Program-made: the position numbers and the translations under genes
Part shown: piece after piece, positions 935-27,445 of the stretch
Layout of the letters: each line of letters starts with the position of its first letter
How positions within the stretch are numbered: the first letter of the stretch is position 1
Virus record (IMG/VR): IMGVR_UViG_3300021400_000113
Coordinates: 40,932 to 104,931 of that record
Origin: a virus
Lineage: Duplodnaviria; Heunggongvirae; Uroviricota; Caudoviricetes
Strand: one strand, 5' to 3'
DNA length: 64,000 nucleotides
The notes under the pieces: generated by a model
The model's input: only the letters and a program-made list of their open reading frames with translations
The model's database searches: none
What the model was told of the DNA's origin: nothing

Positions 935-2047
935 GCCTCTGCCGATGGGGCAATGAAACTAAATCGGTCGATTAAAGTGAAAGACGTTGGCGAACGAAAC
1001 GTTAGGGCGAAAAGGTAGGAACTGGTATGTTCGGGTTCGAATCCCGACGGAGGCAAGGGCGCATACTCCGAACCCTGATGCACTTAGAGTCTAGCCCGCT
1101 CGAAGGTGGCAACTGGAGAGCGTAACCGCACATCGTTCGCGGTATATAAATATGCGGTGTCGGCAAGCAGGGCCAAACTGCTGCAGCTCTGGTAGTCAGG
1201 CAGAGAACTAGAGGCTCCCTAGCATAAATAGAAGGAGTGACGAGGAAGTTACGCAGTTATGGCACTGCGTCTAATCCACCCAGACCAATTGGTCATGTTT
1301 TAAGACATAGAGGTAGGAGAAATTAAATGAGTCGCGCTAATAGACCGCAAGTTCGCAATAGTCTGTTTAGGAAACGCAGTTGAAAAGATACTAAGCGCCT
1401 ATTGGTGCCCAAATGCCGTAGTTAGCGTGTAAGTTTTGAAAGACTAAGACTGAGAAGCTTTAGGTCGCGCGCTAGGAAGAATGGGTTAAATGGAGTTTGA
1501 AGAACAGCCAAGTCCAAACAGTAAGGACATAAAAGAAGGAATGTGAGTTCCCGCCACGCTCAGAGTTGATGGTGCGCTACACTTCGGAAATGGGAAGTGG
1601 GGATGGACGAAGACCAGATTGAGATAGATATACAAACAATGCGCGAAAACAGGCTTGAATGTATGTAGGCCACCTCAAAAGTCATGGCTGAAAAACGGGA
1701 TGGAAGGAAACGAGTTCTCTTGTCCTTACCCAGGTTAAAACCTCGGAAAAGCGATTAATAGTAGTCGCACCCGTCACATTGCGTAGGCCAATTGAGCAGC
1801 AATGCGGTAATACCAGTGCACTGGTAGCAAAGTTACCCTGGCTCCCCAGAGTTTGGGCGCAACCTGGGTTATCAAACGCCTATATGCCCGCATCGAATAA
1901 TTGGTTAGTTCGTCACCCTTTCAAGGTGAAAATTCCGGATCGTTCCCGGATGTGGGTGCCATTACAGGCGGCACGAGTCTGTATAAAGAAACGTGTTCTT
2001 CTCTTCGGGACGACGAAGACCAGGTGAGGTAGTCAGGCTCGCCATAT

Positions 2048-2621: not shown

Positions 2622-2744
2622 GGCCGATTCGCCAAGTGGTTTGGCAGGTGGCTGGTTGGATAGAATTAGTCCTAGCTAGGTGTAAGACCTAGATCCAGCA
2701 CAATTAACCACCCCAGGGGAGTTCAATTCTCTCATCGGCCGCCA
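2622..2744 (+). tRNA. tRNA-like gene with ~50-nt insert enclosed by the anticodon stem (candidate intron-containing tRNA)
   Basis: Perfect 7-bp acceptor ggccgat/atcggcc with encoded CCA. Class-II-like D-arm gccaagtggtttggc. ggtgg...ccacc encloses about 57 nt. T-arm gggag-ttcaatt-ctctc. Confidence 0.3.
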
Positions 2745-3692: not shown

Positions 3693-4109
3693 TGGCCTTA
3701 GACGGGTCAAACGATGTAGGCTTTTTCCCAGCTCATTGGGTTAAGTGAGCATTAAGAGACTTGCCCACGCCTCTTAATAATGCGTACCAGGGAAGCACGT
3801 GGCTACAACGGTTAATAGTAGCAATATGGCGAGGTAGACCAATTTGGCAGAGTCAAGAGACTTTAGTAAAATTGAGCACTAAATAGGAAACTATTTATGT
3901 GAATCGCGTCAAATTCGGTGAAACTCCTTACAGGACAATACCGAGCGAAGCCTTTTAGGAACGTGTAGAGACTTGACGGCGCGCACCTAAACAGAAATGT
4001 ATGGTGAAGATAAAGTCCAGACTACAACGCTATTGCGGCCATAGTAATATGGAGTAGTAAGAAAATCTCTGTAGTGTGGGTTCGAATCCCATCCTCGCTA
4101 CCATTTATG

Positions 4110-5092: not shown

Positions 5093-5098
5093 TATAAT
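5070..5098 (+). promoter_or_regulatory. conserved phage promoter copy
   Basis: ttgact at 5070-5075 and tgatataat at 5090-5098, followed by aaatatgtaagaaagg. Drives GC-rich non-coding island 5116-5700. Confidence 0.55.
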
Positions 5099-5948: not shown

Positions 5949-5963
5949 ATATAATATTGATAT

Positions 5964-5992
5964 TTGACTTCATTCTAAAATTATGATATAAT
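5964..5992 (+). promoter_or_regulatory. conserved phage promoter copy
   Basis: ttgact at 5964-5969 and tgatataat at 5984-5992, followed by aaatatgt. Sits upstream of a tRNA cluster. Confidence 0.55.
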
Positions 5993-6179
5993 AAATATGT
6001 TGAGAACGTGGGACATATAAGTTATATGGAGTTAAGGCGCCACCACGAACAGTACTATATGCGGCGATTCTCAACATTAACTAAACGTGAAGGGAACAAG
6101 TTACCTTAGAAGACTTGCGCGTCAAGTGGACCTGTAACGGGAGGAGAAGGTCGTAAATATTCTCCCTCCGCCATTTAAT

Positions 6180-6258
6180 GCCCTATTAGCTCAGCGGAAT
6201 AGAGCACCGCGCTACGGACGCGGGTTTGTCAGGCGTTCAAATCGTCTATAGGGCACCA
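6180..6258 (+). tRNA. tRNA-Arg (anticodon ACG)
   Basis: Perfect acceptor gccctat/atagggc. D-arm gctcagcggaatagagc. Anticodon stem ccgcg/cgcgg, loop ctacgga. T-loop ttcaaat. CCA is encoded. Confidence 0.65.
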
Positions 6259-6332
6259 TTAACGACGATTACAGCAATAGTTTTAACAATAAATTAGGGA
6301 TTTATTTAGTTAGAAATCGTCGTGTTATTTAT

Positions 6333-6423
6333 GCGTCGGTGTGGCTAGTGGCGAAGCCAGCAGACTGTAAATCTGCTCCCCTCAGGGTAAACATCGTAGG
6401 TTCAACTCCTACTCGGCGCACCA
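6333..6423 (+). tRNA. tRNA-Tyr (anticodon GTA), class II with long variable arm
   Basis: Acceptor gcgtcgg/tcggcgc. Anticodon stem gcaga/tctgc, loop ctgtaaa. Variable arm cccctcaggg. T-arm gtagg-ttcaact-cctac. CCA is encoded. Confidence 0.55.
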
Positions 6424-6504
6424 ATAGTGTTGCGAGCTTAGTCGCAGGAAAGTTACTACCCTAAGGCAACCGTTGTGAGTTTGGTGTTCAAAACTCTCAT
6501 ATGG

Positions 6505-6632
6505 GCGAGTAGCCAAGTGGTCAAAGGCATTGGAACCATAAATGAATCTAGTGACTAAGGTTCTAACAGCTACTTAATGGACTGTAAATCCAAGGCGAAA
6601 GCTACGCAGGTTCAAATCCTGTCCTCGCCCAT
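6505..6632 (+). tRNA. tRNA-like gene with ~50-nt insert inside the anticodon stem (terminal loop ctgtaaa, GTA)
   Basis: Perfect acceptor gggcgag/ctcgccc. Class-II D-arm gccaagtggtcaaaggc. ttgga...tccaa encloses about 58 nt. T-arm has ttcaaat. Confidence 0.35.
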
Positions 6633-6637
6633 TACAA

Positions 6638-6727
6638 AGGGGAGTGGTGTAACGGCAACACGCAGGTCTCTAAAACCTGGGCCTTCTGAGGGCGTCATTC
6701 TCGGTTCAAATCCGAGCTCCCCCGCCA
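6638..6727 (+). tRNA. amber suppressor tRNA (anticodon CTA, reads UAG), with a long variable region
   Basis: Perfect anticodon stem caggt/acctg with 7-nt loop ctctaaa, giving U33-CUA-A37. D-stem gtgt/acac. T-arm ctcgg-ttcaaat-ccgag. 3' end ctccccc-g-cca. Variable region is about 20 nt. Confidence 0.6.
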
Positions 6728-6826
6728 ATTATAGACCATTTCTGCAAATAATTAATGGATAAAGAAAATTTCTGTAAAAAATTTTTGAATAGGTTCGATT
6801 CCTATAAATTTCAAATGGTCTAGTTC

Positions 6827-6899
<73 letters not shown>

Positions 6900-7034
6900 T
6901 TAAATCACATTAGATAAAAGTACGATCAATAAAATAGTCTATATCCTTCGTTGACGCTATAAGGGTAATTAATGAAAAGTCAATTACTGTGGATAGGTTC
7001 CATTTGGAGAATCGGGAGAATGGATGTGATTTAT

Positions 7035-7107
7035 GCGCGTGTAGCTCAGTTGGTAGAGCACGTGACTTTTAATCACGGTGTCGAGAGTTCAATTCTCTCC
7101 ACGCGCA
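7035..7107 (+). tRNA. tRNA-Lys (anticodon TTT)
   Basis: Perfect acceptor gcgcgtg/cacgcgc. D-arm tagctcagttggtagagc. Anticodon stem cgtga/tcacg, loop cttttaa. T-arm gagag-ttcaatt-ctctc. Confidence 0.7.
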
Positions 7108-7129
7108 CTAATTTGAAAGGAGTATTAAA

Positions 7130-7456
7130 ATGAATACTATACTAGGTAAAATTACTAATGTAAGATTTGGTTTTATTCCGGACTATCCGTTTCTTTTTGG
7201 AATTGATTTTGATTTTTCTCTTGGAGACGGTAGTGGTATTGGCTCTGGCGGAAAATATACTGTTAATATCAGTAAAGACTGTAAATGGAGCGCGGAAGAA
7301 CGTAAAGAAGCGATTGAAAGTTCAATTGACTTCATCGTTAAAATTTTAAAAGATGCTAAAGTAGATAATGTATATGATCTTAAAAATAAGCCAGTAGAAG
7401 TATATATTCAAGATAATACTTTTGTCAATTTTAGAATTTTAACAGAAGTTCTATAA
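7130..7456 (+). CDS. hypothetical protein
   Basis: ORF with RBS aaaggag. Gly-rich segment GDGSGIGSGG. Confidence 0.5.
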   Translation: MNTILGKITNVRFGFIPDYPFLFGIDFDFSLGDGSGIGSGGKYTVNISKDCKWSAEERKEAIESSIDFIVKILKDAKVDNVYDLKNKPVEVYIQDNTFVNFRILTEVL

Positions 7457-7474
7457 CATAAAGGAGTATATGAT

Positions 7475-7843
7475 ATGACTGTTCAGGAAGTAGTTTGGTT
7501 CATGAATCATAAATACGGTGAACAAGCATATGTTGTAGAAACAAAGGAAGAAATTTTATTGTTCTCATTAAAATCAAAATGGATTATTAAAAAATCTGAT
7601 TTTAAACACTTTCATACTTATACTCTATTTCATTTTAACGATATTGAACGTGAACATTATCATGTTCAATTAAAATCTCAAAATTTAGATTATCTCGTAT
7701 ACCAAGCAATCGCACACGATAATGAAAAAATTCCATATTCTAATAATGATTGGAAACAATTTAATGAAATGTGGAATATGTATTTATTAGGTAGAGAAAT
7801 TGAAGGACGTGCGGCAGCTTGGGATTGGTTATGTGGTCGGTAG
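7475..7843 (+). CDS. hypothetical protein (terminates at TAG; see rejected notes)
   Basis: ORF with RBS aaggag. The only stop before the tRNA cluster is TAG at 7841-7843. Confidence 0.45.
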   Translation: MTVQEVVWFMNHKYGEQAYVVETKEEILLFSLKSKWIIKKSDFKHFHTYTLFHFNDIEREHYHVQLKSQNLDYLVYQAIAHDNEKIPYSNNDWKQFNEMWNMYLLGREIEGRAAAWDWLCGR

Positions 7844-7904
7844 TTTAACGGTAAAACCTCGGATTGTGGCTCCGAAGACGCAGGTTCAACTCCTGTCCTT
7901 CCAA
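7833..7904 (+). tRNA. tRNA-His (anticodon GTG) with G-1; imperfect acceptor
   Basis: Perfect anticodon stem tcgga/tccga with loop ttgtggc. D-stem gttt/aaac. T-arm gcagg-ttcaact-cctgt. Acceptor tggtcgg/ccttcca has 2 central mismatches. Confidence 0.45.
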
Positions 7905-7905
7905 T

Positions 7906-7976
7906 GCAGGTATAGTATAGTGGTAATACATCACCTTGCCAAGGTGAAATCGCGGGTTCAAATCCCGCTACTTGCT
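7906..7976 (+). tRNA. tRNA-Gly (anticodon GCC)
   Basis: Acceptor gcaggta/tacttgc. Anticodon stem tcacc/ggtga, loop ttgccaa. T-arm gcggg-ttcaaat-cccgc. Confidence 0.6.
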
Positions 7977-7982
7977 TATTAT

Positions 7983-8057
7983 GGCATGGTAGCTGAGATG
8001 GATTAGCACTTGACTGAAAATCAAGATAGGTTGGATCGTTACCAACCCATGCCACCA
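7983..8057 (+). tRNA. tRNA-Phe (anticodon GAA)
   Basis: Perfect acceptor ggcatgg/ccatgcc. Anticodon stem cttga/tcaag, loop ctgaaaa. CCA is encoded. T-loop is atypical. Confidence 0.5.
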
Positions 8058-8060
8058 TAT

Positions 8061-8132
8061 AGGTCGGTGGTGCAATTGGTAGCATAGCGGTCTCCAAAAC
8101 CGTTGATTGGGGTTCGAGTCCCTGCCTTCCTG
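8061..8132 (+). tRNA. tRNA-Trp (anticodon CCA); imperfect acceptor
   Basis: Anticodon stem gcggt/accgt, loop ctccaaa. T-arm tgggg-ttcgagt-ccctg. Acceptor aggtcgg/ccttcct has 2 mismatches, the same pattern as tRNA-His. Confidence 0.45.
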
Positions 8133-8136
8133 CTAT

Positions 8137-8208
8137 GCGTCCAATTCTCGTCGGTCGGGAGAGGGTCTGCAAAATCCTTGTTAGTTGGTTCAACTCCAAC
8201 TGGACGCT
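8137..8208 (+). tRNA. tRNA-Cys (anticodon GCA)
   Basis: Perfect acceptor gcgtcca/tggacgc. Anticodon stem agggt/atcct, loop ctgcaaa. T-arm gttgg-ttcaact-ccaac. Confidence 0.55.
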
Positions 8209-8215
8209 TTATTAC

Positions 8216-8244
8216 TTGACTTTTAGTTAAAATTATAGTATAAT
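8216..8244 (+). promoter_or_regulatory. conserved phage promoter copy
   Basis: ttgact at 8216-8221 and tagtataat at 8236-8244, followed by aaatatgtaaagaac. Confidence 0.55.
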
Positions 8245-8263
8245 AAATATGTAAAGAACATGG

Positions 8264-8420
8264 GGTGTGATTAAAGCATCAGGGTAGTTTTCGCTGTACT
8301 TAGAAATAAGTACCGGTTCCGGGCAAACAGGAGCAAGCGTAAGGGTATGAAGCATTTTAATTGCACGCACCGAAGTGGGTCCGCACATCCACTGGGGTTC
8401 AATTCCCCCACACTCCACCA
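8264..8420 (+). ncRNA. ~157-nt RNA with tRNA-like termini (GGGG 5' end, T-arm plus CCA 3' end); long tRNA-like or intron-containing tRNA
   Basis: 5' ggggtgt pairs with 3' acactcc-a-cca. T-arm ctgggg-ttcaatt-cccc. About 85 extra nt in between. Lies directly downstream of a promoter copy. Confidence 0.3.
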
Positions 8421-8484
8421 GGTTCGTCTATGATGCCTTACGTAGACCGTGGGGTACAGACCACGTTAAAATTGCTGTACGTTA

Positions 8485-8560
8485 CGGGGTGTAGCGCAGT
8501 TGGTAGCGTGCTTGATTTGGGATCAAGAAGTCGTGGGTTCAAGTCCCACCACTCCGACCA
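8485..8560 (+). tRNA. tRNA-Pro (anticodon TGG)
   Basis: Acceptor cggggtg/cactccg. D-arm tagcgcagttggtagcg. Anticodon stem cttga/tcaag, loop tttggga. T-arm gtggg-ttcaagt-cccac. CCA is encoded. Confidence 0.6.
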
Positions 8561-8736
8561 GTAACCTTTGAGAATGGGAATATATAAAGGTGTTGCCGCC
8601 GAAGCGGGTCGCGAACCAAATCGGAAAGGAAAATTCTCGTATCCCGGACGAACCACTAGGGAATCTTAAGGAGGTGGCCGCCGTAAGCCCGGTCGTTAAA
8701 GATATACAAATGTTATTGGTATATCTGGCTTATTTT

Positions 8737-8806
8737 GCTTCATTGATGTAATGGCAACATAAGTGTTTCGTAAGCACCATATAGAGGTTCGACTCCCTAT
8801 GAAGCT
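8737..8806 (+). tRNA. tRNA-Thr (anticodon CGT)
   Basis: Perfect acceptor gcttcat/atgaagc. Anticodon stem gtgt/gcac, loop ttcgtaa. T-arm gagg-ttcgact-ccct. Confidence 0.45.
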
Positions 8807-8823
8807 TCAAGAAAGGTGATAAT

Positions 8824-9147
8824 ATGAAAGAAGATCGAAAACCAATCTATCGTATCCTCTTATTTTCAAAAATTCCTACATTAGATAAACTTGGATGGCC
8901 TGATTGTGGTACTCAGGATGACGTAGGTTTTTACTATGAATATGAAACCGCAGTTCGCGCGATGCATGAAAATTGGTGTGATATTCAAGACGGCGGATTA
9001 TTTAAAGCAGGATTTATTTTAACTTCATATCCAGGTTGTTATGATAACGCGACAAAAGATCGTCGTACTTATTTTGAATGGGATGAAGAACGCGGCGGGT
9101 TTTTTGAAAAAGAAGAACCAGAATGTTTTGAACATTTTTCTTATTAA
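8824..9147 (+). CDS. hypothetical protein
   Basis: ORF with RBS aaaggtgataatatg. Confidence 0.5.
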   Translation: MKEDRKPIYRILLFSKIPTLDKLGWPDCGTQDDVGFYYEYETAVRAMHENWCDIQDGGLFKAGFILTSYPGCYDNATKDRRTYFEWDEERGGFFEKEEPECFEHFSY

Positions 9148-9158
9148 GGAGAATTAAT

Positions 9159-9329
9159 ATGATGTATTTATCAGAATTACTAGACCGCCTAGAAGATTTA
9201 CGCATTTCTGACAGCGATTTTTTTGGAAAAGATTATGCTACTCAATGTGCCTATGAAAAAGCAAACGATATGCTTGATGAATGTTTACAAATAGTACAAG
9301 ATTATTTTGGAGAGCATACGTTTGAATGA
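9159..9329 (+). CDS. small hypothetical protein (56 aa)
   Basis: RBS aaggag, ATG at 9159. TGA overlaps the ATG of the next gene. Confidence 0.4.
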   Translation: MMYLSELLDRLEDLRISDSDFFGKDYATQCAYEKANDMLDECLQIVQDYFGEHTFE

Positions 9330-9760
9330 AATTATATACTTCATATTTCGCGCAATTGCGTAATTTTCCACCAAATCTCGTAGGGCTTTCAACTGCGATT
9401 TGGAATCCTAAATGGCTTCAATCTGGACGAGATAAAAATGGAGCAATATGGTTAGATGTGCCTCCTTTAAAACCTGGCCGCGAATGTGATGGCCTTTGCG
9501 CGGGAAAATGTAATCCAAAGCATCCACAAGACTGCGCCTTTCTTAAAGTTTATTATGAACAATTAAAGAAAATAGATTATTTTAAATTTATGAATAAACT
9601 ATTTGATTTACATGATAAAATTTGTGAAAGTGAAGGAATGACTGAATTAGATTTTGCTTTTCTTGTATATGAAACGCCGCAAAATCCTTGTAGTGAACGC
9701 GCAATAATTCAAAAATGGTTTTATGAAAATGGAATGGAAATTGAAGAATGGCATAAATAA
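9326..9760 (+). CDS. hypothetical Cys-containing protein
   Basis: ORF of 144 aa. Start overlaps the upstream stop (ATGA). Confidence 0.5.
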   Translation: MKLYTSYFAQLRNFPPNLVGLSTAIWNPKWLQSGRDKNGAIWLDVPPLKPGRECDGLCAGKCNPKHPQDCAFLKVYYEQLKKIDYFKFMNKLFDLHDKICESEGMTELDFAFLVYETPQNPCSERAIIQKWFYENGMEIEEWHK

Positions 9761-9789
9761 TTGACTTTATTTTAAAATTATGTTATAAT
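9761..9789 (+). promoter_or_regulatory. conserved phage promoter copy
   Basis: ttgact at 9761-9766 and tgttataat at 9781-9789, followed by atatatgtaaaaaag. Confidence 0.55.
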
Positions 9790-9822
9790 ATATATGTAAA
9801 AAAGAAGAGGAGAAAAAAGAAG

Positions 9823-10011
9823 ATGGATGAAAACAAAAACGCTACTTTAAATTTTAATTTTTACCCTGACGACTATCCCGATGTAGATCTAAGTTTTCAT
9901 TGCAGTGAGGACCTAGATATGGCTGAACTGGTAGACTACTTTAAGCGATTTGTTTATGCAATAGGCTTTGCGCCCGGTACTGTTGAGAAATATCTTAGCG
10001 AGGATTATTAA
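9823..10011 (+). CDS. small acidic hypothetical protein
   Basis: ORF with RBS aagaggag. Confidence 0.4.
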   Translation: MDENKNATLNFNFYPDDYPDVDLSFHCSEDLDMAELVDYFKRFVYAIGFAPGTVEKYLSEDY

Positions 10012-10022
10012 TCCTCCTATAT

Positions 10023-10099
10023 CGGGCATTCGTATATTGGTATGATTACGCCAGTCTTATAAACTGGTCAGGGTGGTCCGATTCCACCATGCCCGACCA
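10023..10099 (+). tRNA. tRNA-Ile (anticodon TAT, AUA-reading type)
   Basis: Perfect acceptor cgggcat/atgcccg. Anticodon stem ccagt/actgg, loop cttataa. T-arm ggtgg-tccgatt-ccacc. CCA is encoded. Confidence 0.5.
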
Positions 10100-10114
10100 T
10101 TAAAGGAGAATACT

Positions 10115-10582
10115 ATGTGGTTTTTAAAGAAAAAAGAAGAACCAATTCAAACCTATGAAGAAAGACCAAAAGAATGCCAACATAAATGGCGTGATTTTGA
10201 TCCAATTATGAAATTTAGTTTTTATCCATATCATGAGAATGAGGATAAAAATAAAAAGGGACAATTAAAAATCAGCATGAAAGAAAGTTATGTTTGCTGT
10301 TTATGCTTAGATCGTGAAGATAGAACTTTGTGCTCTTGGGTTTTTGAAAATTTAACTCAAGAGGAAGCATATAAAAAAGTTCAAGACTTCAAAAAAGAAT
10401 ATGAAGGATTTTATAAGCCAGAAGCTAAAATTGAGGATGAAATTCTTGATATGCAATATAATATTGATCGTGAATTTTTACGCAATTTAGCTTTATATCA
10501 TCCCGAAAAGGTTGGTTCTAGTTTTCAATCTATCACTCGTGTTCCTACACTTTCTGAATTTAAAGGTGATAAAAATGCTTAA
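10115..10582 (+). CDS. hypothetical protein
   Basis: RBS aaaggag then ATG at 10115 (MWFLKKKEE...). The upstream part of ORF 10073 overlaps a tRNA. Confidence 0.5.
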   Translation: MWFLKKKEEPIQTYEERPKECQHKWRDFDPIMKFSFYPYHENEDKNKKGQLKISMKESYVCCLCLDREDRTLCSWVFENLTQEEAYKKVQDFKKEYEGFYKPEAKIEDEILDMQYNIDREFLRNLALYHPEKVGSSFQSITRVPTLSEFKGDKNA

Positions 10583-10889
10583 TTATAATTATAATAGCGC
10601 AGAAGGATGGCGGTGTCCCCATTGTGGCGCAGTAATGGCTCCTTGGTAGCCTTCTTGTATTAATTGTACTGGCAAGAGTTAGAGACCAATAGAATATCAT
10701 ACTGCTGCTCCAAATATTACTATTCAATCTGGTAAAACTAACGCAACTCCTAACACTATTACTTGGGCTAGTTCATTAGATAATTGTATTACCACTGATA
10801 AAACTATAAATTGTACTTTAACTTCAAACACTATAACTGCTCAAGATAAATTACGTACAACTTTAAAATCTGCTGGAATTGATATTTGA
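10575..10889 (+). CDS. zinc-ribbon protein (CPHCG...CINCTG) with two in-frame TAGs
   Basis: ATG at 10575 overlaps the upstream stop. Frame stays open through 2 TAG codons to TGA at 10887-10889. Confidence 0.35.
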
Positions 10890-10914
10890 CTTTTATAAAA
10901 AATTATATTATAAT
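10886..10914 (+). promoter_or_regulatory. conserved phage promoter copy
   Basis: ttgact at 10886-10891 and attataat at 10907-10914, followed by atatatgtaaagaaaag. Drives GC-rich island 11040-11640 and downstream tRNAs. Confidence 0.5.
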
Positions 10915-11650
10915 ATATATGTAAAGAAAAGAGAAAGGAAAGGTGATTGATATGCGTAAAACTCGTCGTATTGTGTTTTCTTCCTCTTGGAGTCGTGCTC
11001 GTCAGGCTAAAGAAATTGATGAGTGGCAGATTTAAGCGCTTCATCTCAGATAGATGAGATGCGAAATTGCGGCCAATCGCTATACGGCGCTACCGTTAAT
11101 ACCCTTCTAACGCCTCTCGTAGAAGCGCACCACTAGAAGGTTTATCACCCGGGTATTGTGATGTAGGACATAGGGCCTACGGTTGTATGAAACAACGATA
11201 AAAATTCATAGCGAGAAGATGTCATCAGTAAATGAACTTGATGTGCATCCTCACAAATTGCGGCCAAATTGCATCGCTACCGTATCTTGCCTATTAAGTA
11301 GGTCGGCCGCTGAAAGATAGGAAGAAACCGCTAATTGATTATGTTCCTGCGGTATATAAAAAGAACGTAATTCGCGAAGAGAAGATTCTTAGAACGGAAC
11401 ACTTCATACCCCGAGCGTGGTAAAATAAAGTCCTCTAAGACGTAGCGCGGTATATAGCGGTCGCAACAGCGTGAGAGTAAAATAAAAACGCTAACAACAT
11501 GTTGGGGTTTACGGTGTAAAAATCCCCGCTATGGCGAAAAACCGTTTCCTTTGTAAGTGGCTAAGCCGATAGCCCATACATTGTGCGGTTTGTATAATAG
11601 TTATATAGATAAAGTATAGTGTCGCCGCAACATTATACATCGGCTTATAT

Positions 11651-11741
11651 GGGGAGGTACCCAAGTGGTTTAAGGGGGCTGCCTACTAAGCAGTTAGGCT
11701 AGGTAACTAGCGCGTGGGTTCAAATCCCACCCTCCCCGCCA
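11651..11741 (+). tRNA. class-II (Ser-like) tRNA with ACT anticodon
   Basis: Perfect acceptor ggggagg/cctcccc. D-arm cccaagtggtttaaggg. Anticodon stem gctgc/gcagt, loop ctactaa. Variable arm gctaggtaactagc. T-loop ttcaaat. CCA is encoded. Confidence 0.45.
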
Positions 11742-11742
11742 T

Positions 11743-11816
11743 GGGCGAGTAACCGAATTGGCATAGGTACCAGACTAAGAATCTGGGTTTTGAGGGTTCA
11801 ACTCCCTCTTTGCCCA
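11743..11816 (+). tRNA. tRNA with AAG anticodon (reads CUU; short variable loop)
   Basis: Acceptor gggcgag/tttgccc with G-U pairs. Anticodon stem ccaga/tctgg, loop ctaagaa. T-arm gaggg-ttcaact-ccctc. Confidence 0.4.
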
Positions 11817-11821
11817 TTTAT

Positions 11822-11896
11822 AGGCGAGTAGTCTAACGGTTTATTGGACATGCGGCTTTGACCCGCAGTGAGGTGGTTCGACTCCACCCTCGCCTG
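11822..11896 (+). tRNA. tRNA-Gln (anticodon TTG)
   Basis: Perfect acceptor aggcgag/ctcgcct. Anticodon stem tgcgg/ccgca, loop ctttgac. T-arm ggtgg-ttcgact-ccacc. Confidence 0.6.
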
Positions 11897-11971
11897 CTAA
11901 CGACTCTTACAGCAATTATTATAACCGCCATTTAATTTATATACAAGGTTAAGTATAGAGAGTCTAGATAT

Positions 11972-12161
11972 GCCGCCGTGGCTCAATGGTAGAGCAGCGC
12001 ACTTGTCAAGTTAGTTTAAGAGTAAAACACCCGAATCACAGGGATAAGACCGTATTAACTAATTAATTGACGAATTAATTAGGCGAAGATATGTAAGCTC
12101 AATACTTACACTTGGCTCCAGTAATGCGCAGGTTACAGGTTCAAGTCCTGCCGGCGGCTCC
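11972..12161 (+). tRNA. tRNA gene interrupted by a ~115-nt insertion in the anticodon loop (candidate intron-containing tRNA, possible TGT anticodon)
   Basis: Perfect acceptor gccgccg/cggcggc with CCA. D-arm gctcaatggtagagc. Anticodon stem 5' gcgca and loop start cttgtca at 11997-12008. Matching tgcgc lies at 12124-12128. T-arm cagg-ttcaagt-cctg follows. Confidence 0.45.
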
Positions 12162-12431
12162 AAGCGTTTAGGCGATATCGCTCTGAGAACAACCACCCAG
12201 GCAGTGAGGGGAGATAAGATATTCGCGAACAAGAGCTCCTTAGCCCTCACAATTAAGACAGGCTTTTCGGGTTAACACAGCAAATTATTTCCGAAGTAGT
12301 ATAAAGGTAGTACACTGTGAATAAAACCTCAGAGATTTCGGTTCGAATCCGAACCCCCTGTCTGTCTTGGAATTGCGGTTGAAATCTTCGGATGAAACCT
12401 GTCCCGGAGGATGCGTCCAAAGGGATTTTAT

Positions 12432-12517
12432 GGGCAGATGGCCGAGTGGCTTAAGGCGGCGGTCTTGAAAACCGTTGACGTGATGAACGTCCGTGGGTTC
12501 AAATCCTACTCTGCCCG
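12432..12517 (+). tRNA. tRNA-Ser (anticodon TGA), class II
   Basis: Perfect acceptor gggcaga/tctgccc. D-arm gccgagtggcttaaggc. Anticodon stem gcggt/accgt, loop cttgaaa. Variable arm gacgtgatgaacgtc. T-loop ttcaaat. Confidence 0.65.
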
Positions 12518-12536
12518 CTAATTATATATAAAGGAA

Positions 12537-12815
12537 GTGTTATCTATGAGGACAATGGCAGAAAAACGACACAATGATTACGTTAAGGCAATTCGTAAGC
12601 GTAGAATCGATCGTGAAACTTCTCCTTTATGTTGGAATCACGACTGGTATGATAACCTTCATCAATATAGTAAAAATAAAATTCACTGTTCTTGTCCAAT
12701 GTGCTCTGCTAAAACGAATAATCGCGGCAGAAAAGGTAGTTGGGAACCAAATACTACTTGGAGCATTACAGATCAGAAAAAATTAAATGCGTTAGCCTAT
12801 CAGGAGGATGAATAA
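12537..12815 (+). CDS. hypothetical Cys/His-containing protein
   Basis: ORF of 92 aa ending TAA. A hairpin terminator follows. Confidence 0.4.
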   Translation: MLSMRTMAEKRHNDYVKAIRKRRIDRETSPLCWNHDWYDNLHQYSKNKIHCSCPMCSAKTNNRGRKGSWEPNTTWSITDQKKLNALAYQEDE

Positions 12816-12889: not shown

Positions 12890-13360
12890 ATGAAACCTAC
12901 ATTATATATTTTATGCGGGGCGCCAGGGAGTGGCAAATCAACCTTCGCCGCGAATTTAGTCCCTAATATTCATTGGGTCTCCCGCGATGCTACTCGATTT
13001 GAATTGGTTAAAGAAGAGGAAGAATATTTCTCTCATGAAAAAGAAGTATTTAATCGTTTTGTAGAACGAATTGTAATTTCACTACAAACTGGAGCAGATA
13101 CTATCGCAGACGCTACCCATTTAAACACCGCTTCCCGTAAAAAACTTACTAACGCGATTGATTCTTATTTTGAACTATATAATATTATTTATGTAATTTT
13201 TACTGCTTCCGCCGATTTATGCATCAAAAGAAATATTAATCGCGTGGGGCGCGAAAAGGTGCCAGAAGATGTAATTCGTAAAATGCGCGCTTCTCTTACT
13301 ATTCCTTATAATGAAGATGCCCGTGAAATTGGAAAATGGATTATTGAAGGAGAGGTTTAA
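12890..13360 (+). CDS. P-loop kinase, polynucleotide kinase (Pnk)-like
   Basis: N-terminal LYILCGAPGSGKSTFA Walker A resembles the T4 Pnk kinase domain. RBS aaaggag. Confidence 0.5.
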   Translation: MKPTLYILCGAPGSGKSTFAANLVPNIHWVSRDATRFELVKEEEEYFSHEKEVFNRFVERIVISLQTGADTIADATHLNTASRKKLTNAIDSYFELYNIIYVIFTASADLCIKRNINRVGREKVPEDVIRKMRASLTIPYNEDAREIGKWIIEGEV

Positions 13361-13620: not shown

Positions 13621-14244
13621 ATGAGCGAATATTTTATAACTAGTGACCTTCATATTAATCATGAACAAGAGTTTTTATATGGACCACGTGGCTTTACTTC
13701 TGTTAAAGAAATGAATGAAGCCATCGTTGAAAAATGGAACTCAATAGTTAAACCAGAAGATATAATTTATAATCTTGGCGATATAGCAATGAATGATATT
13801 TCAGGCGCGATTCCATATCTTAAACAACTTAATGGCTTTCAATGGTGGATTCGTGGCAATCATTGTACCTTAAATAAAGTAAAAAGAATTTGCGAAGAGT
13901 GTAAAAATATTTCACTCATTAGTAATCCAGAAGCCTCTTGGGCAACAATGTTTAAATACGGAAAAATTTATTGCTATCTTTCCCATTATCCAACTATAAC
14001 CGCAAATTATGATGAAAAACATTTTAACCAGCATGTACTAGCATTACATGGGCATACGCATCAGCAAGCAAATTTTATGTATCCAAATAATCCTTTTTGT
14101 TATCATGTAGGAATGGATAGTCATAATTGTACTCCGGTTTCATTAGATGAAATTATTTGCGAAGTGCGACAGCGCTGGCTTGATTTACAAGCTTTAAAAA
14201 TTCCAGTTGAAGATTTATATACTTATCCAATGAGAGGAGAATAA
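13621..14244 (+). CDS. calcineurin-like metallophosphoesterase
   Basis: Motifs DLHINH, GDIAMND, GNHC and HGHTH match the metallophosphatase signature. Confidence 0.7.
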   Translation: MSEYFITSDLHINHEQEFLYGPRGFTSVKEMNEAIVEKWNSIVKPEDIIYNLGDIAMNDISGAIPYLKQLNGFQWWIRGNHCTLNKVKRICEECKNISLISNPEASWATMFKYGKIYCYLSHYPTITANYDEKHFNQHVLALHGHTHQQANFMYPNNPFCYHVGMDSHNCTPVSLDEIICEVRQRWLDLQALKIPVEDLYTYPMRGE

Positions 14245-16751: not shown

Positions 16752-19184
16752 ATGTCACAGGTAATTAATATTACTGATAGTAAAACTATTATTCCTTCTG
16801 GTTATGATAGTAATAACTCATCATATTCTAGTATTAATAGCAGTTATCCAGTAACCAACGGTTATACTGATGCCGATTCTACCTCTTATGCTTATATAAC
16901 TTGTAATACTGGCTCTCATGCTACTACGTATATTTCTTATACTTTTGATACTTCAGAAATTCCAGAAAACGCGGCAATAGATTCTATTACTTGTAAAGCT
17001 AAAGTACGCGTAAGTTCTACTTCTTATATTTCTACCGGAGTCACATAGCTGTACACCGGAAGTATAGCGAAAGGCAGTGCGACAACTACAAGAAGTACTA
17101 CAGCAACTACATATGATTTAACTACTGGAACTTGGACCCGTACAGAACTTAATGACGTTCAAGTACGTTTTACAGGCACGCGTGGTACAAGTAATACCAC
17201 CCGTGCCGCTTATTTATACTTTTATGGGGCTACTCTGACTATAAATTATTCTATTAATGGAACATAGTATAGTATTGTAGCAACCAGTAATGTTGAAAAT
17301 TATGAAATCTCTCCAAATCATCAAAATAAAATGGAAGGAGAGGAAGCAACGGTTACTATAACCGGAAATAATTTAGAAGATATTATCGTAACAGATAATG
17401 ATATAGATATAACAGAAAATTTAATATAGCATACAATTGAAAATACTGGAAGTGTATCCGCAATCCCAGGAGAAAATTTTGAAACAGGATTTAGTTCTTC
17501 TAATGCAAATTTTTATATGTCTTCAAGTTCAACCGGAACAACATGGTTAGAATATGCAATTGGGCACTCTGCTGAAAATCCATATACTTCTTCTAGCTCC
17601 CATAATACTTATGTTAAAGATAATGACAATAATACTGCAACTGGCTGGATTAGCTTCCCATTCGATTTTAGTGAAATTCCTTTTAATGCCGTAATAGATT
17701 TGGTTACAGTTAAAGTATATGGCGCACGTGAGAATTCAACCACTGATTCTACTCACGTAGCAAAATTTGGAGTCTATTGTAATGGAGTATTAAAAGGGGC
17801 AGAATAGCAATTTACTAGTACGACAAGTGGTATTGTTACTCTAACCTCCCCCGGAACCTGGACGCGCGAAGAATTACAATCAGCAGAACTTCGTTTTACA
17901 GTTGCGTATTATGGAGGACATTTAGATGGCGCTACTTGGACTGTAAATTACAGCGTTCCTAATACAGGAAATAATTATTATTGGACTTATGATTTAACTA
18001 ATATCAATGCAGACCATGTTATTTTAATAGATTAGCGTGGTGCTTTTATTCCTCCCGAAGAAAATCCAGAATATGAATATTATCCAATAACGATTTCTAG
18101 TATTAATGCTACTACAACCCCACATAATGGCTCTACCCGTATAATAGAAGGAAGCAATCAAACTATTACTATATCTCCTTCTGACCCACAATTAACACTT
18201 GCTTTAGATAATGGAGTAGACATTACAAGTCAATTGTAGGGAGGCACCCCTGAAAATACTTATACAATAACTACACAAGTCTCAGGAGCAAGTTATGGCT
18301 TTAATCTAAATGAATCAACTGGATATTATGTTTCAACTAATAGAGGAGTTTCAAATTCAGCAGCAGTTGCTAGACTTAATATGAATTTTGAAAGTAATTG
18401 TTTAGTAACAATACAATATATCAACTATGCTGAATCTGGATATGACTATGGACTATTTGGAAAATTGGACACGGTAGTATCAACAAGCGGTCTAACCGCT
18501 TCCAGTGGTAGTTCCTCCCCATCTGATAGTGATAACTATCAGTTAGCAATGGCATCTAATAATAGTGGCACACAAACAATAACTTATGAAGTACCCTATG
18601 GAGAACATTTTATTGATATTAAATATGGTAAAGATGCTGCGACCGATTCTAATAATGATACTTTATAGTGGAAAGTATTAAGTATAGAAGCCACCAGTGT
18701 CGGTGGAGATTATACATATACATTAACAAATATACAAGAAAAACATAGTTTAATTTTCATATTTGGTAATGTAAATTATTATTTTATAAATTCTTCCGGA
18801 ACAGAATGTAAATTATACCCGGATGGATAGATGGTTAAACTGGAAGGAGATAAATATAATTTAAGAATAATTCCAAATGATGTGAAAGCAACCGTAACCA
18901 TTGTAGATAATAATGTAAATGTTACAAATTTATTATCTATAGAAGAAGGAATAGATAAAAATAACAATCCAATTATTAATTATATATATACTTTAAATAA
19001 TATTATACAAACACATAATTTAGTTATTACATGCATTACTCATCATTAGATTTTATATACTAAAATTAATGGAAATTGGATTAATTTTAGTAAAGCTTAT
19101 GTTAAGATTAATGGCTCTTGGGCAGAGCAAACAGAACTAAGGTAGGTATTCGATAGCCGATTAAATTATGTAAAAGGAAATTAA
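16752..19184 (+). CDS. large tail fibre / adhesin-like protein (~811 codons) with ~10 in-frame TAG codons
   Basis: ORFs 16752-17048, 17517-17807, 18381-18668 and 18831-19049 all share frame 0. Only TAG codons interrupt them. First TAA is at 19182-19184. Composition is Thr/Ser/Asn/Gly-rich. Confidence 0.55.
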
Positions 19185-20884: not shown

Positions 20885-21475
20885 ATGCTTCCGAATTTTC
20901 ACTTCTCTATTGAACGTTGGCGCAAGAATAAGGAATATGGAGTATGGGTTAGTACAGAAGGGCGCATTCGACTTATTCAAAATAAAGAATTTCTTAATGT
21001 TCGTATTGATAAAAGTGGATATTGTGTTGTCTTTACAGAGAAAGGACAACAATTCGTACATCGCCTTGTAGCTTACACTTGGCTTGGGGACAAACGAAAT
21101 GAGAAGTATAATATTGATCATATCAATAGCAATAAACGCGATAATTCTGTGAGAAATCTGCGTTGGGTAAAAATTGAAATTAATACCCAATATGCTCAAT
21201 ATACACGAACACAACTTGATTCAATAGAGTGTATTGAAAAAAAAGAAGATATAGAGACACGAAAACAGCTATTATATCAGCGCTTTCGTAATAAGGAAAT
21301 CTATATTGGTATTAATGACAATTACTTTTCCGATTATGTAGAAATTTGTAAATTTTTACATATCTCTAATACCCCTCCTCTTAAAGTATTTTGCGCAAAT
21401 GTATTAATGGCTATTGAAAAGAATACTACATATATGGGATATATATGGAATATTAAGGAGAAGGACGATGAATAA
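20885..21475 (+). CDS. HNH homing endonuclease
   Basis: HRLVAYTW...IDHINSNKRDNSVRNLRWV is an HNH_3 / NUMOD-type motif. Confidence 0.6.
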   Translation: MLPNFHFSIERWRKNKEYGVWVSTEGRIRLIQNKEFLNVRIDKSGYCVVFTEKGQQFVHRLVAYTWLGDKRNEKYNIDHINSNKRDNSVRNLRWVKIEINTQYAQYTRTQLDSIECIEKKEDIETRKQLLYQRFRNKEIYIGINDNYFSDYVEICKFLHISNTPPLKVFCANVLMAIEKNTTYMGYIWNIKEKDDE

Positions 21476-22262
21476 GACAGAGATTTTAGAAAAAGTTAAA
21501 AATCATACCACCTTAGTAAAAGAATTTGTTCATGATTTAGGCTATCAACACATTATGACTGTATTAGTAGGTTCTCAAAATTATGGGCTAGATTCAGAAA
21601 ATAGTGATATTGATACATATTCTTTTGTTGCACCAAAGTTATACGATTTAATGACAGGCAAAGAACCACTAAGTAAAGAATATGAAGTTGAAGATGGTAA
21701 ATGCGTAGTAAAAGATATTCGTTTAGCATTTAATCTTTTACGTAAGCCCTCTCCTAATAGTGTTGAATGCTTTGTTTCTAAATATAAATATTACGAACCT
21801 GCTTATGAATCAATTCTCAAATATTTCTTAGAAACCGAAGTTGTATTACGTGTTCTTGTTCATGCCAATTTTAAAAATATGCTAAATGCTATTGCTGGTA
21901 CAGCATTTGGACTACATGGTCGTAATATGACGGAAGGCAAAAAATATTCTCATTGTTTGCGACTTGAAGAAATGATGGCGCGTTATTTAAATTGGAATGT
22001 AAGTCCATTTCTTTATTTAGATTTACATACTAAAAATCTTGCTGAAGCACGCGCCGCAAAATTTGGAGAATTAAATCTAACTGATGAATATATGCAGCAA
22101 CAGTGTGAAGCAATCGCCGAGATTCTGACCATTAAAGCAAACAACTTTATTCCTTCTGAAGGACAAATAACATATGAACATTTTAGTTTAGTATTAATTG
22201 ATTCTTTCCAAGAATTATTATTTGATAAGTATCTTGAATTAAATGGATATAAAAAGGAGTAA
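21468..22262 (+). CDS. Pol-beta superfamily nucleotidyltransferase
   Basis: GSQNYGLDSENSDIDTY matches the GS-x-G...DxD nucleotidyltransferase signature. RBS aaggagaagg then ATG at 21468. Confidence 0.5.
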   Translation: MNKTEILEKVKNHTTLVKEFVHDLGYQHIMTVLVGSQNYGLDSENSDIDTYSFVAPKLYDLMTGKEPLSKEYEVEDGKCVVKDIRLAFNLLRKPSPNSVECFVSKYKYYEPAYESILKYFLETEVVLRVLVHANFKNMLNAIAGTAFGLHGRNMTEGKKYSHCLRLEEMMARYLNWNVSPFLYLDLHTKNLAEARAAKFGELNLTDEYMQQQCEAIAEILTIKANNFIPSEGQITYEHFSLVLIDSFQELLFDKYLELNGYKKE

Positions 22263-26218: not shown

Positions 26219-27445
26219 ATGCTAAATGCTAAACAAGAACGCGAACTAGCTTATGTAGTCATTGTAGATGGAATTGAACCTATTCCTGGTTATGATCGCG
26301 TAGAACATGCTATTATTGGTGGTTGGCGAGTAATTGTTCAGAAAGACCAGTTTAAAGTGGGTGATCCCGCTATTTACTTTGAAATTGATTCTCGTGTGCC
26401 CGCAGATAGAGAATGCTTTGCTTTCCTTGAAAAGCGTAATTATAAAGTAAAAACTTTAAAGATGTGCAAAACTATTTCTCAGGGATTACTAATGCATGCC
26501 GCTGATTTTGGATGGCATATTGAAAATCTTGCAGAAGATGTAAATATTTGCATTGTTGATGATAAAGGCGTTCGTCATTATCCTCATGACGAATCTCGTT
26601 TCTTAACTAAGCAACTTGGTATAACCTATGCCGACGAAGAAGATAACCAACGGAAAACCCCTTCTGTAGATAAGTATAAGAAAATGGCTGGACGCCATCC
26701 TAAATTATTTAAAAAGCCTTTTATTCGTTGGTTAATGAAGTATTCTTGGGGTCGTAAAATCATGTTCTTTTTCTTCGGTAAAAAGAAGGACAAGAAGAAC
26801 GGATGGCCTGCTTGGGTTCAAAAAACAGATGAAGAAAGAATAGAAAATATGCCTTTTGTGCTTCAGAACAAGAATCCTTGGATTGTAACCGAGAAAGTGG
26901 ATGGTTCTTCCACTAGCTTTACTATGAAACGCGGAAAATTCGGTAAAAAAGAGTTCTATGTTTGCTCTCGTAATGTGTGTTTTGACAGCGTAGATAAACC
27001 TTGCTATTACGATACAAATATTTATTGGGAAATGGCACAGAAATATCATATGTTTGAGGCATTATCTAAACTTCTTGATTCTATGCCCGCGGTTGAATGG
27101 GTAACTATTCAGGGCGAAACCTATGGTGAGGGAGTTCAGCGTAACACTTATGGACTTAATTACCATGATTTTATGGCTTTTAACCTTATTACTTCTGATA
27201 AGGGCCGTTGGAATAGTTGCGACATGAAGGAGATTCTTGAAAAAGATTATAATATCCCTTGTGTGCCTATTCTTAATGATAATTATATCCTCCCTGATAC
27301 TGTAGAAGAACTTCGTGAGTATGTAAATAGTCAGCCCTCAGTTATTGATGGCAAGATGAAAGAGGGCATTGTATGTCGCTCTCCCGATGGTATTCATTCA
27401 TTCAAATGTGTTTCACCTGAATATCTTCTAAAATATCATAGTTAA
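26219..27445 (+). CDS. ATP-dependent polynucleotide ligase-like protein (KxDG nucleotidyltransferase; RNA-ligase-like)
   Basis: IVTEKVDGSS is the motif I lysine-adenylate signature of the ligase family. Confidence 0.45.
   Translation: MLNAKQERELAYVVIVDGIEPIPGYDRVEHAIIGGWRVIVQKDQFKVGDPAIYFEIDSRVPADRECFAFLEKRNYKVKTLKMCKTISQGLLMHAADFGWHIENLAEDVNICIVDDKGVRHYPHDESRFLTKQLGITYADEEDNQRKTPSVDKYKKMAGRHPKLFKKPFIRWLMKYSWGRKIMFFFFGKKKDKKNGWPAWVQKTDEERIENMPFVLQNKNPWIVTEKVDGSSTSFTMKRGKFGKKEFYVCSRNVCFDSVDKPCYYDTNIYWEMAQKYHMFEALSKLLDSMPAVEWVTIQGETYGEGVQRNTYGLNYHDFMAFNLITSDKGRWNSCDMKEILEKDYNIPCVPILNDNYILPDTVEELREYVNSQPSVIDGKMKEGIVCRSPDGIHSFKCVSPEYLLKYHS

Follow-up and report, generated by a model that had tools for sequence, protein, structure and literature searches.

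Interrupted tRNA genes in a phage tRNA array

The window analysed here, a stretch of 64,000 nucleotides (nt) of a Caudoviricetes phage (IMG/VR record IMGVR_UViG_3300021400_000113, positions 40,932 to 104,931), opens with a plus-strand array of transfer RNA (tRNA) and tRNA-like genes (1-12600), in which the genes for tRNA-Thr(UGU) at 11972-12162 and tRNA-Asn(GUU) at 2622-2744 are interrupted in the anticodon loop by inserts that themselves have the architecture of a tRNA or tRNA minihelix. A search with ARAGORN without intron detection returned 25 standard tRNAs from the array and passed over the interrupted elements; one further tRNA was located with Rfam at 859-931. In intron mode, ARAGORN reported four additional, interrupted tRNAs, all within the array, at 2622-2744 (insert of 49 nt), 3828-4103 (198 nt), 6503-6631 (47 nt) and 11972-12162 (116 nt). 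The same mode yielded no further interrupted tRNAs from the other 51 kb of the window, and neither tRNAs nor introns from a control of 886 kb of reversed related sequence, hence the interrupted-tRNA calls are not due to chance. By ARAGORN, the Asn and Thr(UGU) genes of the window exist in interrupted form only, and the Asn gene is needed for the tRNA set of the window to cover 20 amino acids.

An earlier note on this DNA had proposed five tRNA genes split by insertions. The proposal held for 11972-12162, 2622-2744 and 6503-6631, in each of which ARAGORN intron mode places an insert, but not for the elements at 8264-8420 and 935-1054; both the interrupted tRNA-Leu(UAA) gene at 3828-4103 and the tRNA shape of the inserts had been overlooked. 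Folding, which had been suggested as a check, gave z-scores of -2.4 to -3.5 for three elements, though the minimum-energy folds were extended anticodon arms that did not reveal the architecture, which was found through comparison with relatives. For this comparison, 93 related loci were retrieved by means of the neighbouring kinase gene and DNA patterns (labelled L001, L007 and so forth, with positions numbered within each locus). These originate from uncultured phages of ~130-190 kb in the IMG/VR and JGI metagenome collections, and the first 88 of them, together with the window, contained 456 intact tRNAs (ARAGORN).

tRNA-shaped inserts in the Asn and Thr genes

The insert of tRNA-Asn(GUU) consists, in order, of the helix GUUGGAU/AUCCAGC, a 14-nt linker, the hairpin CUAGG-UGUAAGA-CCUAG and the tail ACAA (Table 1). 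The helix is paired at 7/7 positions starting from the first nucleotide of the insert, and is directly adjoined by the stem (5/5) with its 7-nt loop. With the insert removed, the gene is identical at 74/74 positions to an intact gene of a relative (L012:398-471), the two differing by a clean 49-nt indel, and a second relative (L007) carries an intact tRNA-Asn(GUU) that is orthologous to 2622-2744. The call of Thr(GGU) made by ARAGORN for this gene was rejected on account of the 74/74 identity of its joined exons to tRNA-Asn; the earlier note had rightly taken it as interrupted, with 57 nt enclosed by the stem ggtgg/ccacc, and the insert comprises 49 nt at 2655-2703. A homologous insert, also of 49 nt, is found in tRNA-Asn of L070, retaining the site and an NCAA tail while its interior has diverged almost completely. 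Between the window and L070, 66/66 positions of tRNA and insert are paired, with 11 compensatory pairs (seven in the outer tRNA and four in the minihelix). The predicted exon-exon junction is GGTGGCTG joined to TTAACCACC.

Joining the exons of tRNA-Thr(UGU) in silico restores a normal 75-nt Thr(tgt) cloverleaf, with a predicted junction of GCGCACTT joined to GTAATGCGC. The 116-nt insert likewise begins with the first base of a terminal helix paired at 7/7 positions, adjoined by a hairpin of five base pairs (bp) and a 7-nt loop. Its start had been placed by the earlier note after cttgtca; the real start follows ctt (U34), and gtcaagt is the 5' strand of the terminal helix of the insert. An orthologous Thr(UGU) gene in the syntenic locus L001 (7590-7664) is free of the insert, with conserved flanks and acceptor stem, whilst the insert is carried by L046, L089, L090 and L091. 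Across three variants of the gene and insert (that of the window, that of L046, L089 and L090, and that of L091), 99.3% of 150 base-pair positions are paired, with seven compensatory pairs as against 0-1 in shifted controls. Three of these lie in the outer tRNA (two in the acceptor stem, one in the T-stem) and four in the nested element (two in the acceptor helix, one in the variable hairpin, one in the T-arm). The outer tRNA and the nested element are therefore both under selection for their helices, and it is on geometry and covariation that the tRNA-likeness of the window Thr insert rests.

The acceptor helix GUCAAGU/ACUUGGC is identical in the window Thr insert and in a tRNA-Gln insert of L017, which hints at movement between tRNAs that share a CUU context before the insertion site. 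BLAST of 11600-12600 against isolate phages matched ordinary tRNAs alone, and exact-pattern scans for the Thr insert gave no hits with the first viral-contig pattern and none in bacterial genomes.

Table 1. Coordinates of interrupted tRNA genes, tRNA-like RNAs, RNA-repair genes and repeated motifs in the window.
Feature	Position	Strand	Details
tRNA-Thr(UGU) exon 1	11972..12004	+	acceptor 5' strand, D-arm, anticodon-stem 5' strand, C32 U33 U34
Nested tRNA-like insert, 116 nt	12005..12120	+	between U34 and G35
tRNA-Thr(UGU) exon 2	12121..12162	+	G35 U36 A37 A38, anticodon-stem 3' strand, T-arm, acceptor 3' strand, UCCA
Thr insert, acceptor-type helix	12005-12011 with 12110-12116	+	
Thr insert, D-like hairpin	12014-12028	+	
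Thr insert, short (anticodon-like) hairpin	12030-12043	+	3-bp stem
Thr insert, long variable hairpin	12059-12082	+	
Thr insert, T-arm-type hairpin	12093-12109	+	
Thr insert, tail UCCA	12117-12120	+	discriminator plus CCA
tRNA-Asn(GUU) exon 1	2622..2654	+	to G34; 100% identical to 5' part of L012:398-471
Nested minihelix, 49 nt	2655..2703	+	between G34 and U35
tRNA-Asn(GUU) exon 2	2704..2744	+	from U35; identity to the intact L012 gene
tRNA-Leu(UAA)	3828..4103	+	198-nt group I intron at 3864-4061, between U34 and A35; Rfam and ARAGORN
Second tRNA-Tyr(GUA)	6503..6631	+	47-nt insert at 6535-6581; ARAGORN intron mode; spanned by Rfam tRNA, 30 bits
Free-standing tRNA-like RNA, ~157 nt	8262..8421	+	fold: 7-bp acceptor helix, T-arm, ACCA end
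Free-standing tRNA-like RNA, ~118 nt	935..1054	+	acceptor GCCUCUG/CGGAGGC, T-arm UCGGG-UUCGAAU-CCCGA
5'-OH polynucleotide kinase	12890..13360	+	Pnkp-type kinase domain; Pfam AAA_33
Metallophosphoesterase	13621..14244	+	candidate 2',3'-cyclic phosphodiesterase / 3'-phosphatase; Pfam Metallophos; PHROG phosphoesterase, E=7e-40
RlaP nucleotidyltransferase	21414..22262	+	RNA-repair-linked family; Pfam PF10127
ATP-dependent RNA ligase	26219..27445	+	Naegleria gruberi (Rnl5) type, N-terminal OB domain; Pfam RNA_ligase and PHA02142 OB domain
AT-rich motif sites	~795-840, 4613-4674, 5953-6003, 8215-8250, 9753-9802, 10881-10944		
AT-rich motif sites, continued	19165-19235, 20822-20871, 23497-23549, 28555-28618, 49146-49208, 56874-56925		

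A class of nested inserts in related phages

Approximately 15 insert lineages were found in the related phages, in tRNAs for Gln, Asn, Thr, Ile, Lys, Leu and Glu. The inserts range from 49 to 118 nt and are located at 32/33, 34/35, 35/36 or 36/37, always within the 7-nt anticodon loop, never at 37/38 and in no case in a stem or another loop. Their removal in silico gave normal tRNAs with a 7-nt anticodon loop by ARAGORN in 11/11 cases, and the joined exons matched intact genes of other loci over their full length (L017 and L025 with L050, 72/72; L080 with L063, L053, L026 and L003, 72/72). The same insertion events were recovered independently when 332 distinct intact tRNAs were compared with all loci by split-BLAST. 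Inserts are present in some and absent from others of otherwise identical tRNA genes, and the insertion class is well supported.

Several of the affected genes had been assigned by ARAGORN to the wrong isotype. Those called 'Pro(UGG)' and 'Thr(UGU)' in L017, L025 and L058 were reassigned to Gln(UUG), intact Gln genes matching them at up to 100% identity, and the 'Trp(CCA)' gene of L084 to Lys(UUU), for which an intact Lys gene shows 91% identity; those of L035 and L078, also called Trp(CCA), are best read as Ile(UAU), since in the body of the gene they are similar to Ile, Lys or Met tRNAs but not to Trp. In L084, L035 and L078 the 'CCA' of the Trp call is the 3' end of the insert. Standard tools therefore miss or mistype such genes (Asn as Thr, Ile and Lys as Trp, Gln as Pro or Thr), which biases tRNA repertoires, codon-usage inferences and recoding predictions of uncultured phages.

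With regard to the nested elements themselves, a terminal helix paired at 7/7 positions from insert position 1 was found in 12/13, and a 5-bp stem with a 7-nt loop (among them UUCGAUC, UGCAACU and UUCAAAU) within the 17 nt just before the 3' strand of that helix in 10/13. The tail is NCCA in 8/13 (the three Thr variants counted separately; chance 1/64 each), NCAA in both Asn inserts and two nucleotides (AC, AU) in two, with two additional cases in L091 ending in ACCA and GUG. Longer inserts also contain D-like and shortened anticodon-like hairpins. Using the Rfam tRNA model (threshold 29), nested elements of relatives scored 36.5 bits (L064:2513-2581), 35.6 bits (L035:2471-2540) and 27.7 bits (L080), and three were called as tRNAs by ARAGORN at a relaxed threshold. 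At L044:5277-5346, a free-standing tRNA-like gene of 70 nt is a homologue of the element found inside tRNA-Gln in L025, L058 and L092, and the same RNA thus occurs both nested and free. Near-identical tRNA-Gln genes were found to carry four unrelated inserts at one site. The possibility that all nested elements form a single sequence family was rejected, as BLAST reached close orthologues only and a profile gave E=0.67 on the Thr insert.

Other interrupted genes and tRNA-like RNAs of the array

The interrupted tRNA-Leu(UAA) gene contains a genuine group I intron, matched by the Rfam model RF00028 at 3854-4038 with 58.3 bits (threshold 50), and its exons match, at 100% and 97.6%, an intronless Leu(UAA) gene in a relative (L012:1242). 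Small group I introns, 174-295 nt in length, were also found in tRNA-Leu(UAA) and CUA-suppressor tRNA genes of relatives, including L007 (744-1010, minus strand) and L046:3815-4202, and are likewise present or absent between near-identical exons; that of 174 nt falls below the Rfam threshold and is clearly homologous.

The interrupted tRNA-Tyr(GUA) gene adjoins an ordinary Tyr gene. The earlier note had recognised this element as an interrupted tRNA at 6505-6632, which stands with corrected limits, the gene spanning 6503-6631 and the insert measuring 47 nt at 6535-6581. The insert, whose boundary is ambiguous by up to 4 nt, lies at the 5' edge of the anticodon stem/loop and exhibits neither the geometry of a 7-bp helix plus T-arm nor the bulge-helix-bulge (BHB) motif. 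Gene and insert together are ~93-95% conserved in five contigs, and the neighbouring Tyr gene is far more variable. RNAalifold suggested an alternative 7-bp helix (UGGAACC/GGUUCUA) from nucleotide 28, and also paired ACAG with the anticodon loop; neither shows covariation. This insert belongs to a different class from those of Thr and Asn, and could be another kind of intron or else an extra arm that is retained. An AUG...UAA frame of 11 codons within it (MNLVTKVLTAT) is kept in the L001/L014 variant with one synonymous and two non-synonymous changes; the frame is probably there by chance.

For the elements at 8262-8421 and 935-1054, the 7-bp terminal helix and T-arm described in the earlier note were confirmed, but their status as interrupted tRNAs was not: ARAGORN intron mode returned nothing, and an exhaustive deletion scan (8255-8430 and 930-1060) produced scattered isotypes and boundaries that were inconsistent with one another. 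Rfam has no family that matches their interiors, and the sampled relatives yielded no homologues. Permuted tRNA-like modules, comprising a T-arm, a closed acceptor hairpin and a D-arm, are present at 698-802, 3404-3468 and 2484-2533, with weak Rfam matches to YrlA (25-35 bits). Nearby, the open reading frame (ORF) at 19606-20790 (394 amino acids) combines DUF2828 and DUF7788 and belongs to PHROG 850 ('RNA-binding protein'), with no sequence match in the PDB; together with the YrlA-like modules it may represent a phage pair of the Ro/Y-RNA type. Between the genes for Thr and Ser, Rfam matches a truncated tRNA-like stretch at 12296-12354 with 29.7 bits (positions 7-64 of the model).

RNA-repair genes beside the array

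A set of genes for a kinase, a phosphoesterase, RlaP and an RNA ligase (Table 1) is situated directly downstream of the array and is conserved in relatives. The kinase matches Clostridium thermocellum Pnkp kinase, Pnkp1 and T4 Pnk in the PDB, bacter_Pnkp in NCBIfam and a PHROG annotated 'polynucleotide kinase', and the metallophosphoesterase gene adjoins it in 81/88 related loci. Enzymes of the RlaP family add 1-2 nucleotides to the 3' ends of damaged RNA (PMC12776372). The closest solved relative of the ligase is that of Naegleria gruberi (PDB 5cot, E=2.5e-27); it is 60-86% identical in 22 related loci, and ~29% identical to its counterparts in the nearest isolate phages. As judged from its gene content, the window thus encodes together a healing-and-sealing set of kinase, phosphoesterase and ligase. 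A scan of bacterial genomes with the kinase profile retrieved only distant cellular Pnkp genes (≤34% identity), and gave no clue to the host.

Between the genes for RlaP and the RNA ligase lie two DUF5662 paralogues (22666-23280 and 25153-25620), conserved in the repair cluster of relatives, that may have a part in RNA processing. Other conserved, uncharacterised ORFs of the cluster are located at 23561-24415 and 29196-30047.

A possible route of excision and its alternatives

On the simplest reading, genes bearing these inserts have long been kept as working tRNA genes, so that the insert must leave the RNA. The cleavage site of RNase P is the base of the acceptor helix, and the acceptor/T-arm minihelix, retained even in the 49-nt inserts, is the minimal module recognised by RNase P, RNase Z and the CCA-adding enzyme. 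As the 5' junction of the inserts coincides with the base of the nested acceptor helix, an RNase P cut is proposed at this junction. Both the Thr and Asn inserts of the window fit the substrate geometry of RNase P (7-bp acceptor helix plus 5-bp T-stem and 7-nt loop, with the site at the helix base), and a 3' NCCA is present in the Thr insert (UCCA) and not in the Asn insert (ACAA), such that this second feature is not universal.

In the route that we propose, RNase P would cut where the nested acceptor helix starts, at its 5' end, leaving exon 1 with a 3'-OH, and a second endonuclease, either an RNase Z-type enzyme cutting after CCA or an enzyme of the phage, would cut after the tail and leave exon 2 with a 5'-phosphate. 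With the exon halves kept together by the stems of the outer tRNA, the phage RNA ligase would close the break in the anticodon loop, the kinase, phosphoesterase and RlaP being on hand for end healing if required, and a small tRNA-like RNA would be released. The spliced junctions predicted from the 191-nt and 123-nt RNAs are defined to the nucleotide (GCGCACUU joined to GUAAUGCGC, and GGUGGCUG joined to UUAACCACC). That the Thr and Asn inserts would act as self-contained recognition modules for tRNA end-processing enzymes and be excised as introns is, from their sequences, a plausible and evenly balanced reading. More tentatively, they may constitute a third kind of tRNA intron, mobile and tRNA-shaped, which would be excised by the universal tRNA end-processing machinery of the cell (RNase P at its 5' end, a cut near the CCA at its 3' end) and its exons joined by a phage ligase, a proposal that we regard as possible and somewhat doubtful. 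The splicing pathway is accordingly put forward as a hypothesis. The inserts span exactly from a mature 5' end to CCA, and an origin through ligation at the RNA level is therefore possible; the phage repair ligase may have inserted a tRNA-like RNA, already mature, where a host nuclease had broken an anticodon loop, with subsequent copying back to DNA, a scenario that would need reverse transcription.

Several observations weigh against excision by this route. Firstly, excision is a prediction from the gene sequences. No candidate nuclease for the 3' junction was found among the ~50 ORFs of the window scanned with Pfam, PHROGs and NCBIfam, and RNase Z normally cuts after the discriminator, in which case the CCA would stay on exon 2. 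The tails are not uniform (NCCA, NCAA, AC, AU and GUG), and in the tRNA-Glu insert of L091 the nested helix has 6 bp, or 7 bp if a base of the exon is included, placing an RNase P cut measured from the T-arm off by one. With no common sequence family, the nested elements are alike in shape only. The Rfam tRNA model (RF00005) gave no score for the window Thr insert or its outer tRNA at E≤10, and a profile built from unrelated nested elements, excluding the Thr type, scored the Thr insert no better than ordinary tRNAs (E=0.67). The Tyr insert falls outside the nested-element model. As for the repair genes, the cluster is also encoded by relatives whose sampled tRNAs have no inserts and is thus not specific to them, and Naegleria-type ligases prefer nicks in duplex RNA over those in loops.

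Of the alternatives, one supposes that the composite RNA is not spliced at all and is either the product itself or the precursor of the nested RNA, the outer tRNA body serving as a scaffold, for instance as a decoy for tRNA-targeting nucleases of the host, with its halves discarded or acting as tRNA halves. We consider this unlikely, though not negligibly so: in its favour are a nested element under selection of its own (four compensatory pairs each in Thr and Asn), the free-standing homologue of one nested type at L044:5277-5346, the occurrence in the array of other non-decoding tRNA-like RNAs (935-1054, 8262-8421 and the YrlA-like modules) and the empty search for a 3' nuclease among the scanned ORFs. 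Against it, removal of the insert always brings back the 7-nt anticodon loop, canonical in form, of one of the standard isotypes; sister phages have working tRNA genes with which the exons are identical; and Asn or Thr(UGU) genes other than these are absent from the window. A scaffold would have no need to preserve the anticodon stem and loop intact.

The maintenance of the outer helices also bears on a second alternative, in which the inserts are selfish, tRNA-like mobile insertions that inactivate tRNA genes, leaving recent pseudogenes that are tolerated as the tRNAs of the host suffice. Diverged lineages keep these helices through seven (Asn) and three (Thr) compensatory changes with one unpaired cell in total, insertion is confined to the 7-nt anticodon loop, the stems and other loops being spared, and two lineages of the Asn insert share length, site and tail despite interiors that have diverged almost completely, all of which renders decay of these genes improbable. 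Presence or absence between exons of 100% identity does imply recent gain or loss, and four unrelated inserts at one site of near-identical tRNA-Gln genes are what mobile insertions would produce; the basis on which excision is proposed, noted above, leaves room for this explanation as well.

That the short inserts are self-splicing or self-cleaving, either as very reduced group I introns or as a ribozyme of unknown type, appears highly improbable, despite the genuine small group I introns (174-295 nt) found in the same loops of the same arrays and a kinase and phosphoesterase that could heal ribozyme-type ends. No Rfam ribozyme or intron model matched the inserts at E≤1, and RF00028 in particular gave no match in 2655-2703, 6535-6581 or 12005-12120 at E≤1, or at E≤10. 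The inserts, at 49-118 nt, have unrelated interiors with no common conserved core, and what is conserved in them is a tRNA minihelix and not a catalytic core. Exon 1 of tRNA-Asn ends in G and the inserts end in A, not G; a 5' exon ending in U together with a terminal G of the insert was not reached by any allowed boundary shift. The earlier note had judged the insertions too small for typical group I introns, and on this we concur.

The likeness to archaeal or eukaryal introns cut by the BHB splicing endonuclease, also raised in that note, is scarcely credible, for while the inserts are short, lie in the anticodon loop and have an RNA ligase gene nearby, the central 4-bp helix of the motif forms at most three of its four pairs (0-3/4) and its flanking helices are poor in 13/13 cases at all allowed boundary shifts, the sites range from 32/33 to 36/37 and are never 37/38, no EndA/Sen was found among the ~50 scanned ORFs of a window that covers 64 kb of a ~130-190 kb phage, and the surroundings (a group I intron in tRNA-Leu(UAA), ROOL RNA, DnaB) are those of a bacterial phage. 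With the other classes ruled out, a processing system specific to the phage or its host, the last suggestion of the earlier note, is the best remaining idea.

Relation to known systems

Like the inserts described here, group I introns of bacterial and phage tRNAs occupy the anticodon loop, including 34/35, and are present or absent between identical exons; they also co-occur with inserts in the same arrays (3864-4061 in the window, and the suppressor tRNAs of L007 and L046). The inserts, by contrast, lack a catalytic core, a terminal G and a guide-paired 5' exon that ends in U, and instead possess a minihelix and NCCA tail. With the archaeal and eukaryal introns, removed by EndA/Sen plus the ligase RtcB or Trl1, they have in common a short and non-catalytic nature and probably a cut-and-rejoin pathway with an RNA ligase and possibly end healing. 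Here, however, there is no BHB, the sites are others and no EndA/Sen homologue occurs in the scanned ORFs; moreover, recognition in archaea and eukaryotes takes place at the exon-intron junction, whereas recognition of the inserts would presumably lie inside the intron, as a tRNA-like shape.

In MALAT1 mascRNA, mitochondrial tRNA punctuation and tRNA-snoRNA precursors, the flanking RNA is freed by RNase P and RNase Z, whose cuts are directed by an embedded tRNA shape. The inserts would be modules of this kind and likewise direct the cuts, but the flanks in mascRNA-type systems are not rejoined, and here they are the halves of another tRNA, for whose function ligation is required. Kinase, phosphoesterase and ligase of the T4 type are able to reseal a broken anticodon loop. 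The tRNA restriction-repair system of phage T4 (PrrC; Pnkp plus Rnl1) resembles the present locus in having these three activities encoded beside tRNA genes (see also PMC3400036), although it repairs damaged host tRNA-Lys with nothing removed, and the ligase here is of the Naegleria (Rnl5) type and not Rnl1, and is accompanied by RlaP. The modules of YrlA and other bacterial Y RNAs share with the inserts a non-decoding acceptor/T-arm/D-arm shape and, by the weak matches at 698-802 and 3404-3468, the same array, but they are permuted and free-standing, whereas the inserts are unpermuted, have open acceptor ends and are nested in a tRNA anticodon loop.

The established routes of tRNA intron removal are self-splicing (group I and II) and the BHB endonuclease. 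In a full-text literature search, no account of nested or tRNA-like introns in the tRNAs of phages or bacteria came up; the nearest publications were reviews that treat group I and BHB introns, together with a paper of 2026 about Patescibacteria tRNAs and their group I introns. If the proposed excision is correct, it would represent a third route of removal, in which an intron is recognised by looking like a tRNA, and the first enzyme-dependent tRNA splicing in the bacterial world. Phage RNA repair, hitherto viewed as a defence against anticodon nucleases, would moreover acquire a link to the routine maturation of tRNAs, and the question of how such elements move would be raised.

Other features of the window

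A full-length ROOL RNA is located in the middle of the array at 5131-5705 (Rfam RF03087, 323 bits) and is kept in L001, L007 and L064; this RNA and the sample series suggest a rumen origin for the phage clade. The tRNA array of a close relative additionally contains a skipping-rope RNA (L001:3408-3475; Rfam RF02924, 53.8 bits). Among the tRNAs of the window are one with a CUA anticodon (amber suppressor) and a long variable arm at 6638-6727, and a tRNA-Ser with the unusual anticodon ACU at 11651-11741. The former suggests recoding of TAG somewhere in the phage, though the 64-kb window itself reads in the standard code. The remainder of the window consists of dense plus-strand ORFs with 34% G+C, for which the standard code reads well. 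An AT-rich repeated motif of ~50 nt with TTGACT...TATAAT-like hexamers, which is common to L007, occurs at many sites of the window (Table 1) and is probably a family of early promoters. Auxiliary genes of nucleotide metabolism, at 42647-45276, 30049-31131, 41799-42353 and 47178-47642, comprise two of the xanthine/uracil permease family, one adenylosuccinate synthetase-like gene and two that are nucleoside 2-deoxyribosyltransferase-like.

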